From the NCBI GenBank assembly GCA_951406725.2, contig OX597815.1, forward strand, positions 4,774,001-4,838,000: 64,000 bases of DNA, written 5' to 3'. The notes beneath the pieces were generated by a model. That model was not told the origin of the DNA and made no database searches. It saw nothing but the letters and a program-made list of their open reading frames with translations. Shown here in pieces: positions 6,335-37,264 of the stretch; the stretch's first letter is position 1; each line of letters starts with the position of its first letter. Position numbers and translations under genes: made by a program. The DNA comes from Octopus vulgaris. Taxonomy: Eukaryota.

Positions 6335-6471
6335 TTAGTTGACTCTGTCGGGACACATAGTTTGAACGATTTTTGGTTTGGCTAAATCTTTGAAGTCCTC
6401 TGGTTCCTCACAAATATGGACGACAATACCTGGTTGATTCTCTGTTGGTGGATGGAGTTCGTGGGCTTCCC
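6335..6471 (-). CDS. RCAN: RCAN/calcipressin terminal coding exon: (G)EAHELHPPTENQPGIVVHICEEPEDFKDLAKPKIVQTMCPDRVN*
   Basis: Polypyrimidine tract and CAG acceptor (6474-6472); phase 1 matches the upstream exon. Resembles the RCAN C-terminus (GEKYELH..PSVVVHVCE..PKPKIIQTRRP), with ELH, PxIxIT-like PGIVVH and TxxP (TMCP). TAA stop at 6337-6335. Confidence 0.95.
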
Positions 6472-6549
6472 CTGTCGAAGAGAAAAAAAGAGAGTAGAAA
6501 GAAAGAAAGAAAGAGACTCTCAAGACAAACAAGATGTTTATGGTACAAG

Positions 6550-6697
6550 TATTTACATTATTTACATTTGACGGATATTTGTCCTCATCTTGTTTGTTGT
6601 TAACACAACATTTCAGCTGATATACCCTCCAGCCTTCATCAGGTGTCTTGGGGAAATTTCAAACCTGGGTTCTCATTCCTAAGATAGTTTTTGATAT
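6550..6697 (-). mobile_element. Hammerhead-bearing short element (family T), truncated; HHR motif 6602-6647
   Basis: Minus strand GACAC-CTGATGA-A-GGCTG..CAGCT-GAAA-TGTT-GTGTT. Same family as 6981-7238, 19701-20624 and 45498-46077. Confidence 0.7.
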
Positions 6698-6980
6698 TGG
6701 CCAATGCCAGTGCCACCTCGACTGGCCTCCGTGCCGGTGGCACGTAAAATGCACCAATCTGACCGTGGCCTTTTCCAGCCTCGCCTGGCACCTGTGCAGG
6801 TGGCACGTAAAAAGCACCCACTACACTCACGGAGTGGTTGGCGTTAGGAAGGGCATCAAGCTGTAGAAACATTGCCAGATCAGATTGGAGACTGGTGCAG
6901 CCTTCTGGCTTCCCAGATCCCCGGTCGAACCGTCCAACCCATGCTAGCATGGAGAACGGACACTAAACGATGATGATGAT

Positions 6981-7238
6981 TATTATTTACATTTGACGTA
7001 TATTTATTTGCATCGTGTTTGTTGTTAACACGATGTTTCGGCTGATATACCCTCCAGCCTTCTTGGGGAAATTTCAAACCTGGGTTCTCATTCCTAAGGT
7101 ATTTTTCAATGTTATTATTATTGTTCAGGTCACTGCTTGGAATCAAACTTGGAATCTTGGGGTTAGTAGCCTGTGCTACGCCATATCCCCAAATGTAAAT
7201 AATGTACATAATTCCTCATCTCTTAAATATAGAACTGT
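6981..7238 (-). mobile_element. Family T element (tRNA-like head, HHR core deleted) with inverted 3' tail
   Basis: Body on the minus strand (6981-7187) lacks the CTGATGA segment. It is followed by a plus-strand copy of the element's 3' end (7191-7238). Confidence 0.7.
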
Positions 7239-9659
7239 AAGACGTTTCTAGTACAAGTATACCTTTATCTTTATTCCAGTCTACATCCACAAAACCATCA
7301 AATTGTCCGATTACCAAAGTTTCACATCACCAACCAATTGACCCAACAAGACCCTGGCTATTTGTTTTGTCAGAACAACAGCAGACCCTGTTCTTCTAAG
7401 CTAGCAAGTTGTACATCAACCTCGTCCAGACCAATCTTCATTTTTACATACATACCTACCTTTTCCCTTTTTTCCACCCCTATTGTCCCCCCATTGTCCC
7501 CTATGATAGACTGGCATCGTATCCAAGGGGGTGAGTGTTGCAGTCTAAGTCACTCATACACCATGGAAACCTGATTAAACCTTTGGTGTTTAAACCAGCC
7601 ACATCTGGCCAAAATTTCTGCTAGTATAATGCTCAAACTGGCCAAACCTGGTCTCACACCCACTCTACAATGTCCGACAATCACATCATTGTAATCTCAA
7701 AGCTACAAGACAATGCATAATAGATAAACATTACTTTTGACAGAATAATCTGAATGGCCTTGGATCTCTAAGTCTATTATCTCACACCCCCAAACTCCTT
7801 AAACACTTTACTTAATCCTTTCTTTCCAGAGTAAAAAAACAAAAAAGCCTCTCCTTGACACATTTTCCTCACAGTTTATCAGCAAACAAAAAAAATTAAT
7901 CTCATTACTAATGACATTGATCTCATAGATCTTGTGGGGTCCGCATCAGACTCCCTCTTTGCTTGACTACAAAAATAAACCTTGACCTTTTGAATGTGGA
8001 AAAATAATATATTTACTCCAAATTTTATCACCATTAACTGCAGAATGCAGTTTTATTCCACAGCTTTGGAAAAAAACTCTCCTTACACTATGAGAAGCAA
8101 AAGAACCCCTAGTGACACGTGTTCAGATTAAAAAAATTTTCCCCCATGTTTCATTAAATAGCCATAGCCTATGCCAGTGGGTGGAAGCAGCCCCTTCTGA
8201 GTACCCCTCATTCATTGGACAATAAACTTTGCTTGCCAAGACCTTAAATCCTTAAAAATGTTTTAGTCCGAAGGCTGCGGCCATGCTGGGGCACCACCAC
8301 TGATAAGAAAAATAGGTTGCTCTGAAGTAGAGAGCAATGCCCATATGTGTTAGAAAGATCGATTGATCTCTTCCGTCCTTGTCGAGGGGAGTGCTAACCG
8401 TCACTCCTTTTTTGCAACACCTATCGAAACAAGTGAAATCAAATCAAAATCACTGACATGGCCGATGACAGAACCGGCTGATTGATACTTGTGCCAATAG
8501 AACGTTAGAAACACATCTGAGCGTGATTGTTGCCAGGGCCATGGATTGGCTCTCGTGCCAGTGGCATGTAAAAAGTACCATTTGAGCATGATTGTTGCCA
8601 GCGTAAGCCTTACTGGCACATGTACCGGTGGCATGTGAAAGACAGCATTTGAGCGTGGTCGTTGCCAGTACCACCGGACTGGCTCCCATGCAGGTAGCAC
8701 ATGAAAAAATATCTTTTGAGTGTGGTCGTTGCCAGAACCGCCTGACTTTTTGTTGTGGACATGAAAACCCTGTGCGTAAGAGATACTGAAGAAGCAGAAG
8801 TAGAAAATATCCATTCTATTTTTTGATGGGCAATTAACAACACTAAAGGAATCATTATGAAATGGAATTACACGGTCAAAGTTGCATTCATAGATTTCCT
8901 GTAGACTTTAATAGTTGCAGTAAAGATTGTTTGCCAACATAACATGGCATTCCTGCTTTAGGACGAATGTTGCTGTAATTTAGCCCCAGGAGACATCGTC
9001 TCCAGCTGGCAAGACGACATGATCTGTGTCCTTATATTTTTTAATCTTTGCTCCAAAGTACTGTTGCTGAACACCTCCCATTGTGAGATTTAAAAATAGT
9101 AATTTTCTAATTAATTGTTGCAGTCAGGAAATAGAAGCAGGTCCAGACTTGAGTTCGATGGAGTTTACTATGTCACAGTTTTCTTCTTTCAGTGGAAGCT
9201 TTGTCTACTATCCTCCATAGTTTTATTTCTGTTGAGAGGAGTCTGCAAACGGTTCTCTGGGGTCTGCAAATGCAGAATGGCATTTTACAAACACCTGCTC
9301 CCTAAGTTTTCAAAAAATAAAAGTGCCCTAACTCAAGCAGAAGTTGATTTAATGCAGTATATTTCCTTACACTCTCCAATCTGTTTAGATGTTTGCACGC
9401 ACAACCAGCATCCTCTGTAGGAGGACTTTAGGGCACATGGCCTGCTAATCATCATCATCATCATTTAACGTCCGCTTTCCATGCTAGCATGAGTCGGACG
9501 GTTCGACTGGGGTCTGGGAAGCCAGGAGGCTGCACCAGGCTCCTGTCCTATCTGGCATGGTTTCTACAGCTGGATGCCCTTCCTAATGCCAACCACTCCG
9601 TGAGTGTAGTGGGTGCTTTTTACGTGCCACTGGCACAGGGGCCAGGCGAGGCAACAATG

Positions 9660-35200: not shown

Positions 35201-36327
35201 CAGAAATTCAATTAAGAAAAAAATCCGATGGACTGAAATCTAATAAAGACAAAAGAAAAAAAGCAAAGAAATCCAACAACACTGGAATAAAACCATTTGT
35301 TAAGAAATGAAGAAGCACAGAAACTAAATTCTTAAAATAGTTTGAGAAATTCAATTGAGAGGAGGCGGAGTTTAGCAAAATGTATGAATGGAGACAGTTT
35401 ACTACTTGTGACTTCAGGTAGCAGAAGGACACAGAGGACACACGGACACACACACACACACATGTATATATAAATAACATTATGAATGACTATTATAGAA
35501 CAGGTTCGAATGTATGGTGGTGGTGGTGGTGGTTAGGAGGAAGTTAATGTATATCAGACACACACACATACAGAGATACATATACCCACACATGTATATA
35601 TATATATACACACACACACACATGTATATATATATATATACACACACATATATATATATATACACACATACACACACACACATATATATATATACACACA
35701 CATATATATACACACACACACATATACACACACACACATATGTATATATATACACACATATATACACACATATATACACATATATATACACACACATATA
35801 TACACACACACATATACACACACACACACACACACACATATATATATATATATATAAACACACATCCTGTTTTGTAAGAGACGGCAACAACAATGCGGTG
35901 ACATTCATGGGTTTTCCCAAAGGTATCAGTAGTTGGAGTGGGGTGGGGTGGGGAGTATACCCCCCCCCCGGGGACACTGTGTCTTTTCTGTTATTATTAG
36001 AAAACTTAAGTTACATACATACAAAAGAAGTAAAAGGTAAAATGGGATGTTGTGGCAATCATCACTTCATCTGTCAATAGCATATGTAGGGAGACAGACA
36101 GATAAATACACATATATATATGTGTGTATATATATATATACACACACACAGGTGTGTATATATTTATTCACACACACACACATATATATATATAAAAACA
36201 CACACACACAGGTATATGTGTATATCTGGGTGTATACACACATGTATGTATATCTGTCTTTCTACCTATATATCAAGTTTCATTTATATTAATGTTTTTG
36301 TTTATGTTCAGTACAAATTTATAATTC

Positions 36328-36418
36328 GACAGTGACTTCGAAGTTTCGGCCGGCTAAGCCATCATCAGATTGGCAGAGTGACGACCGCTTAGCTGACCAA
36401 AACTTGGAAGTCACTGTC
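36328..36418. ncRNA. Inverted pair of hammerhead motifs
   Basis: Minus strand: CAAT-CTGATGA-T-GGC..GCC-GAAA-CTTCGAAG-TC-ACTG (36372-36330). The plus strand carries a decayed mirror copy (36374-36418). Confidence 0.55.
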
Positions 36419-36771
36419 AACAACATTCCTGCATAAGAATTAAAAAAAAAAAAAAAACATTTACTTCATATATACATATATATAGATAGAAACACACACA
36501 CACACTCATATATAATCACATAGATAAATACACTGATACACACAGACATACATATATACTTACACACACACACATACACACACTCATATATAATTATATA
36601 GACAAATACACTAATACACACATATATACATATATATATACTCACACACACACACACACACACACACACACACTCATACATAAGTGGAGTTGATAATAAT
36701 TACAGAACCAAAGAAATTATCCAAGAATTTAGATTCTTTTCTTTTGGAATTGCATAAAGAACACATTTTAC

Positions 36772-36810
36772 CTTGCTGCAAGCAGGTGCGTCGTAGGTGG
36801 TGCAGGGCAT
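36772..36810 (-). CDS. RCAN: Putative RCAN first coding exon, MPCTTYDAPACSK
   Basis: First ATG after the predicted TSS, with no upstream ATG in ~420 nt of 5' UTR and A at -3. 13 codons, then donor AAG/GTAAAA in phase 0, compatible with the phase-0 acceptor at 11868. Assignment to RCAN is inference. Confidence 0.6.
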
Positions 36811-37229
36811 GATGAAAGTACCTTCTTGTACTGTTTGAAACGGCTAAGATCTTGGAACGACTCCCTTTCTCTTGGTTTTTACTTATTTTTGTTTTTGTTG
36901 TTGGGATCCCTTTTTGTCTTCCCCTTTTTCTTCTTATATCCGTCTTCCGTTAATTCCTTATACTTTGGTTTATCAATTTCTACACAGAGGCACCGCTGAG
37001 AAAACGGGTTCCACAGAGGCAGAGAGAGAGACAAGAGTTGTAGGAGAGGGGTTATAGATAAAGGTAGAGTATACTCTAGAGGAAGAGAGTGTGGGGCTAA
37101 GTCCACCTTGGTTAGGGAGTGAGTTGGATGAGGTTGGCTAAAGAGAGGATGTGTACCAAAGTACTCAGAGCAACACAAAGAATCTCGACAGAGATCTGCT
37201 AGGTCTCTCCTCCAAGAGTGTCGGCTGGT

Positions 37230-37264
37230 GACTGAGCTGCTGCTCTCTCACTGCTAGGCTTATA
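37230..37264 (-). promoter_or_regulatory. Pol II core promoter: TATA box plus Initiator
   Basis: TATAAG at 37264-37259 and invertebrate-type Inr TCAGTC at 37235-37230. The +1 A (37233) lies exactly 31 nt downstream of the first T of TATA. Confidence 0.7.

Follow-up and report, generated by a model that had tools for sequence, protein, structure and literature searches.

Canonical RCAN proteins carry, at their N terminus, an RNA recognition motif (RRM) followed by the motifs that contact calcineurin. The 64,000-nucleotide stretch of Octopus vulgaris DNA analysed here (assembly GCA_951406725.2, contig OX597815.1, positions 4,774,001 to 4,838,000 of the forward strand; called the window and numbered from its first letter) holds an RCAN open reading frame of 113 aa in which the RRM is absent. 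The question raised by this locus is whether octopus has lost the domain or produces, beside a normal RCAN, a second protein devoid of it. The initial annotation proposed an internal TATA/initiator (Inr) promoter and placed the RRM exons either upstream of the window or among the lost ones. Our analysis points to a single octopus RCAN gene with two promoters, the internal one of which probably makes a 113-aa, calcineurin-binding, RRM-less isoform.

The 113-aa reading frame results from the joining of three exons of the minus strand (36810-36772, 11868-11703 and 6471-6335), in a window sequence that contains no N. The coding part of the first one (36772..36810) begins with the ATG at 36810 and is closed after 13 codons by a phase-0 donor (GTAAAA at 36771). 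The second, the SP exon (11703..11868), is common to both isoforms and lies between an acceptor AG at 11870-11869 and a phase-1 donor GT at 11702; it encodes the LxVP-like motif LQPP, the ten-residue SP signature and the helix of the calcineurin-binding core. The coding part of the last exon (6335..6471) begins at 6471, encodes the PxIxIT-like PGIVVH and the TxxP-like TMCP, and ends with the stop codon at 6337-6335. It is followed by a 3' untranslated region of about 770 nt (5565..6334), the end of which was deduced from a contig of sequencing run X2 whose inferred 3' end, the longest, falls at ~5565, 27 nt past the AATAAA at 5592. The four ATTTA elements of this region might fit an unstable mRNA. 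On the other side of the ATG, a leader of 423 nt (36811..37233, minus strand), present in a single copy in the window, extends to the predicted start A at 37233 in the Inr-like TCAGT (37231..37235), and a TATA-like box, TATAAG (37264-37259), is found 31 nt before this A. The promoter elements, the ATG-free leader, the short exon and its donor were thus found as first annotated, apart from a leader length then given as 420 nt.

The use of these exons was analysed in assembled contigs. Fourteen runs were taken as RNA by guess, none being on record as such, and the contigs of four of the 23 listed runs were aligned to positions 11600-11990: X2, X9 and X19, picked for holding words of the first exon, and X22, picked for holding none. 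In such material contigs show presence, not absence, and the level can be judged only poorly from their depth. Over the 14 runs guessed to be RNA, the word share of 36700-37300 was 0.68-0.82, for an exon-only expectation of 0.75-0.81. Contig cover at the SP exon was exon-shaped (11702-11872), and this exon was joined to the last one in all four runs. The junction of 36772 to 11868, named as a check in the initial annotation, was present in contigs of X2, X9 and X19 (three of the four runs), where the loose-end letters match window positions 36774-36803. At the same acceptor, 11868, an exon coming from outside the window was joined in X2, X9 and X22 (again three of four), and its translation by hand gave the last RRM strand, equal to the end of the Octopus bimaculoides RRM. 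In X22, a single 1336-nt contig extends from this RRM-end exon through the SP exon into the last exon, so that the long and short forms come from the same gene. The depths of the junction contigs were 32.5 (short) versus 28.8 (long) in X2 and 57.5 versus 179.4 in X9, the short junction having about a third of the depth of the long one in the latter. X19 shows the short junction only and X22 the long junction only; these two runs are compatible with isoform switching and are no demonstration of it.

In agreement with the initial annotation, no RRM exon could be detected in the window, whether in the interval separating the short exon from the SP exon or elsewhere. A hidden Markov model (HMM) derived from 93 RCAN N-terminal halves and run on the 3058 stop-free frames of the window gave a best E of 0.51, while two Sepia RRM pieces added to the same frame set as positive controls were recovered with E values of 1e-26 and 2.4e-4. 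The best tblastn match of the O. bimaculoides RRM to the window had an E of 3.4, and the N-terminal exons of the long form, sought in the window by both methods, were not found. Among the 58 stop-to-stop frames with a length of at least 120 aa, 23 were compared with Pfam, the rest being set aside as simple repeats or overlapping frames, and no family was returned. The lack of an RRM exon over 52 kb on the upstream side of the SP exon, together with database searches that returned no full-length Octopus RCAN protein, would fit an octopus which has lost its RRM exons and keeps the 113-aa protein as its only RCAN. This explanation is contradicted by the contigs of X2, X9 and X22, three runs of the organism label in which this sequence is best represented: since an RRM-ending exon is spliced there to the SP acceptor, the RRM was not lost. 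In O. bimaculoides, moreover, the RRM half has a model to itself, A0A0L8GZK7 (202 aa, with an unrelated tail at its end), whose RRM matches 1WEY with an E of 2e-14 and which looks like one side of a split gene; A0A0L8GZK7 and the 113-aa model A0A0L8H116 probably belong to a single gene that has two isoforms. Loss of the RRM is consequently hardly credible, and of the two possibilities first offered for the missing exons, a position outside the window stands. The canonical RRM-containing RCAN would be expressed from a promoter located further upstream than the window reaches, at over 26 kb from 37233.

The exon at 36.8 kb is most likely an alternative first exon of this otherwise normal gene. 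The TATA and Inr pair is not rare in the window, where, counting both strands, 36 such spacings are spread over some 15 loci, and the promoter claim therefore rests on contigs and conservation. From contig sizes, and assuming no indels, the 5' ends of the short form would be ragged and fall at ~37227, 37242 and 37264, between -6 and +31 nt relative to the Inr, the three runs bearing three study codes. An internal or alternative exon of transcripts initiated at the upstream promoter could be imagined instead, given that several AG follow a pyrimidine-rich tract near 37260-37225, that the X2 contig is inferred to extend to 37264, beyond the Inr, and that the 5' side of the exon is known by inference from contig sizes. 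A splice branch, however, should end the contigs at one base, as it does at 11868, whereas the three inferred ends differ; the leader also contains in-frame stops, so that splicing of the RRM to this exon would truncate the protein. An internal exon is for these reasons very improbable. Returning to the alternative first exon, the complete absence of ATG in its leader is uncommon (17 of 1272 423-mers sampled from the window are ATG-free), with a P of 0.07 under a first-order model of the leader itself. Between -600 and +462 (37833-36772), no match to GGAAA (NFAT), MEF2, AP-1 or CArG was found, and inducibility has thus no support in the sequence; the same scan gave one cAMP response element (CRE) half-site, at 37696.

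The short isoform is recorded in two other cephalopods. The O. bimaculoides protein A0A0L8H116 (UniRef) is also 113 aa long and is identical to the O. vulgaris product at 110 of 113 positions, its first 13 residues being the same. In the cuttlefish Sepia pharaonis, a 217-aa RRM form and a 115-aa short form, CAE1259509, are both recorded on a 542,001-bp contig. Both short proteins correspond to the isoform described here, as unnamed records in which the two-promoter layout is not displayed. The short-exon peptide, whose conservation in other cephalopods was a check suggested by the initial annotation, is conserved in Sepia: the 13-residue start of CAE1259509 is identical to the octopus exon at 6 positions, the first four included, and length and phase of the exon are the same. 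When the Sepia 12-mer following the Met was compared with the 75,479 stop-free 12-mers of the window, its top score was obtained on the octopus short exon (34, the next being 26; shuffle P 5e-5). Because the Sepia start aligns best with this very exon, the short exon is homologous across the octopod-decapodiform split, which dates back ~270 million years.

The short exons of octopus and cuttlefish share an invariant start, MPCT (36799-36810, minus strand), and as a speculation the N-terminal Pro or a modified Cys of this tetrapeptide could set turnover or location of the protein. Among the examined proteins with an SP motif at most 100 residues from the start, the MPCT start is restricted to the octopus and cuttlefish models; a 116-aa whale model starting with MPCP was counted as a coincidence. 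No match to query residues 1-5 was present in the best 150 of 515 representatives. The short exon was not seen outside coleoids in searches that show cluster representatives and hide short members, and this absence is weak since representatives only are returned. Shorter bivalve and gastropod isoforms (185, 159 and 171 aa) retain the RRM-core exon. In Argonauta hians, a full-length RCAN form of 281 aa is recorded (GAB1598614), the SP exon of which seems further from Octopus than that of Sepia, owing to fast evolution or to paralogy. A literature search covering mainly open-access papers found none that deals with a short RCAN in cephalopods; for Euprymna hemocytes, an RCAN transcript is listed and nothing further (PMC3349304).

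Alternatively, a conserved promoter or enhancer in the intron might yield the short transcript as a by-product, with little or no functional protein. A precedent exists in human RCAN3, for which mRNAs (RCAN3-4,5 and RCAN3-2,4,5) are described whose coding sequence starts in the SP exon and whose predicted product is RRM-less (PMC3178534), yet the 241-aa protein is the only one detected. The identity of just 46% between the octopus and cuttlefish exons goes in the same direction. Such a by-product would nevertheless not be expected to keep the same length, phase and first four residues in both lineages, nor an ATG-free leader, and the short junction has a depth near that of the long one in X2, reaches a third of it in X9 and is the sole junction in X19. 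We therefore regard the by-product as improbable and the translated short isoform as the better account of these data.

The protein encoded by the two common exons belongs clearly to the family. The SP exon scores 53.8 bits and the O. bimaculoides 113-aa form 73.1 bits on Pfam PF04847 (Calcipressin; cut-off 23.5 bits), and the short protein matches the calcineurin-bound RCAN1 core 6UUQ_B with an E of 7.6e-8. The FLISPPxSPP signature is present, with His in place of Phe, and the alignment places LQPP opposite LAPP (LxVP-like) and PGIVVH opposite PSVVVH (PxIxIT-like). In the TxxP motif, TMCP, the Thr and Pro are kept and a Cys occupies the i+2 position of the human RCAN1 Arg. The assertion of the initial annotation that all docking motifs are present accordingly holds for the SP, LxVP-like and PxIxIT-like motifs and requires a caveat for TxxP. 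In the coleoid sequences seen (octopus, Sepia and Argonauta), FLISPP reads HLISPP and TxxP reads TxCP. The N-terminal RRM, absent from the short form, is predicted with confidence in the long form of Sepia, with a predicted local distance difference test score (pLDDT) of 96-98 over residues 41-110. The AlphaFold model of the O. bimaculoides 113-aa protein is coil except for a helix (57-64) and two strands (72-75 and 84-87), in keeping with the largely disordered product first proposed; these elements are those which fold on binding in RCAN1.

In human RCAN1, the RRM covers residues 1-88 and a disordered calcineurin-binding domain residues 89-197. This fragment alone binds calcineurin with a dissociation constant of 16 nM, inhibits it in vitro and, once bound, folds into a helix and two strands; most of the affinity is given by PxIxIT (145-fold loss on mutation), the active site is blocked by TxxP and the SP repeat, and mutation of the TxxP i+2 Arg188 to Ala halves inhibition (PMC7458460). 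By analogy, docking on calcineurin and its inhibition, in the absence of RNA binding, would be expected of the octopus short form. It could instead be made and bind calcineurin while acting mainly as a weak docking competitor, a substrate or a facilitator. Its TxxP has no i+2 Arg, the same report states that calcineurin activity on p-nitrophenyl phosphate was increased threefold by phosphorylated RCAN1 with a dead TxxP (PMC7458460), and RCANs are reported in a review to facilitate or inhibit according to their level. On the other hand, the elements that provide most of the affinity, the SP pseudosubstrate and PxIxIT-like core, are intact. At the TxxP Arg site, Cys is found in 69 and Arg in 272 of the 375 homologues with a scored motif; being that common in the family, the Cys of TMCP is not a sign of decay. 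The weak competitor is unlikely, and an inhibitory short form is preferred.

Several points weigh against this preferred interpretation. In both the short and the long form, TMCP offers no equivalent of Arg188, and the position of the RCAN1 phospho-switch Thr153 is occupied by Gln. The AlphaFold model of the short form is of low confidence (pLDDT 61, predicted template modelling score 0.19, 18 sequences). The 6/13 identity of the short exon between octopus and Sepia compares poorly with 49/55 for the SP exon and 68/79 for the RRM, and among decapodiforms the exon is carried by a single database model. Finally, the runs are RNA by guess, contigs cannot reveal a transcript start or level, and the observed part of the first exon amounts to 30 loose-end letters, its 5' ends coming from inference only.

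With these points considered, the following mechanism may be proposed. The internal promoter near 37233, which lies in the long intron separating the RRM exon from the SP exon, would give an mRNA of ~1.5 kb. Translation from the first ATG of this mRNA would place 13 residues ahead of the two calcineurin-binding exons and in frame with them, and the resulting 113-aa protein would be a mostly disordered calcineurin-binding domain. Its PxIxIT-like strand would dock on calcineurin and its helix-strand-strand core would fold on binding; with the LxVP pocket occupied and the SP repeat offered as pseudosubstrate, calcineurin would be inhibited without the RNA-binding or other roles of the RRM. The long-to-short ratio in each tissue or state would be set by promoter choice.

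Compared with the RCAN/calcipressin family (PF04847; human RCAN1-3, Drosophila sarah, yeast Rcn1), the octopus gene displays the same motif order (SP, LxVP-like, PxIxIT-like, TxxP-like) and an intron after the RRM at the same position, and its long isoform has the RRM. It differs by a short isoform without RRM, by HLISPP for FLISPP, by Cys for Arg in TxxP and by the lack of Thr153. Human RCAN1-4 and RCAN2-4 likewise arise from an intronic promoter and a short coding first exon within one gene. In human RCAN1 and RCAN2, exon 5 is the splicing partner of the alternative first exons, and every form contains exons 5-7 (PMC3896409, PMC7468584). RCAN1-4 and RCAN2-4 consequently keep the RRM core, as characterised vertebrate RCAN isoforms do with the RRM exon, whereas the octopus exon bypasses one more exon and is joined directly to the SP exon. 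From the 168 residues shared and the RRM limits, exon 5 carries most of the RRM. The boundary between RCAN exons 5 and 6 agrees with the exon-skip models of databases. The RCAN1-4 promoter is described as containing an NFAT cluster, unlike the octopus region, which is without GGAAA from -600 to +462.

The predicted products of human RCAN3-4,5 and RCAN3-2,4,5, and of the RCAN1 forms starting from a Met in the last RRM strand, are wholly or mostly devoid of the RRM and, like the octopus short form, retain the calcineurin-binding part. Comparable automatic vertebrate models exist in databases, for example a 121-aa fish model. A human RCAN1 isoform of 117 aa, a length not confirmed, is also known. 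These human RRM-less forms originate from exon skipping or a downstream ATG and were not detected as protein; the cephalopod form is distinguished by a separate coding first exon that an octopus and a cuttlefish have in common. The boundaries of the engineered fragment RCAN1 89-197 (PMC7458460, PDB 6UUQ), which is disordered and forms one helix and two strands once bound, are nearly equal to those of the octopus protein; the former is a laboratory fragment, and the latter carries 13 additional residues and lacks Arg188 and Thr153. RRM-less RCAN mRNAs are accordingly not new, as the human ones attest, nor is the short protein, already present uncharacterised in UniRef. What was not found in print, among mainly open-access papers, is a conserved and dedicated coding first exon placed after the RRM. 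A further step, tentative and rather doubtful, would be that, in coleoids with their one RCAN gene, a dedicated internal promoter evolved that separates a long RNA-binding RCAN from a short brake acting on calcineurin only and turned on according to tissue or to neural and calcium activity, convergent with RCAN1-4 without its NFAT sites or RRM.

Two other features were observed in or near the gene. The last RCAN intron contains a full-length match to U6atac small nuclear RNA (8305-8420, minus strand, sense to the gene; Rfam RF00619, 88.8 bits for a cut-off of 33). Its conserved 5' box is altered, and the sequences flanking it on either side match neighbouring segments of a single copy of a dispersed repeat (53783-54133); for these reasons it is probably a retrocopy inserted in a repeat. 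Just beyond the 3' end of the gene, a tandem array (4257-4902) consists of 3.7 copies of a 170-bp unit with 87% matches.

For annotators, these results are a warning that the RRM-only and the 113-aa models of O. bimaculoides are probably one gene with two isoforms. For the family, the RRM of RCAN is reported in a review to bind ANT1 mRNA and TET1 introns, while the biochemistry of calcineurin binding used a fragment devoid of the RRM. In octopus and cuttlefish, a natural isoform that lacks the RRM and has a promoter to itself would constitute a separation-of-function pair in which one promoter could be removed and the other kept.

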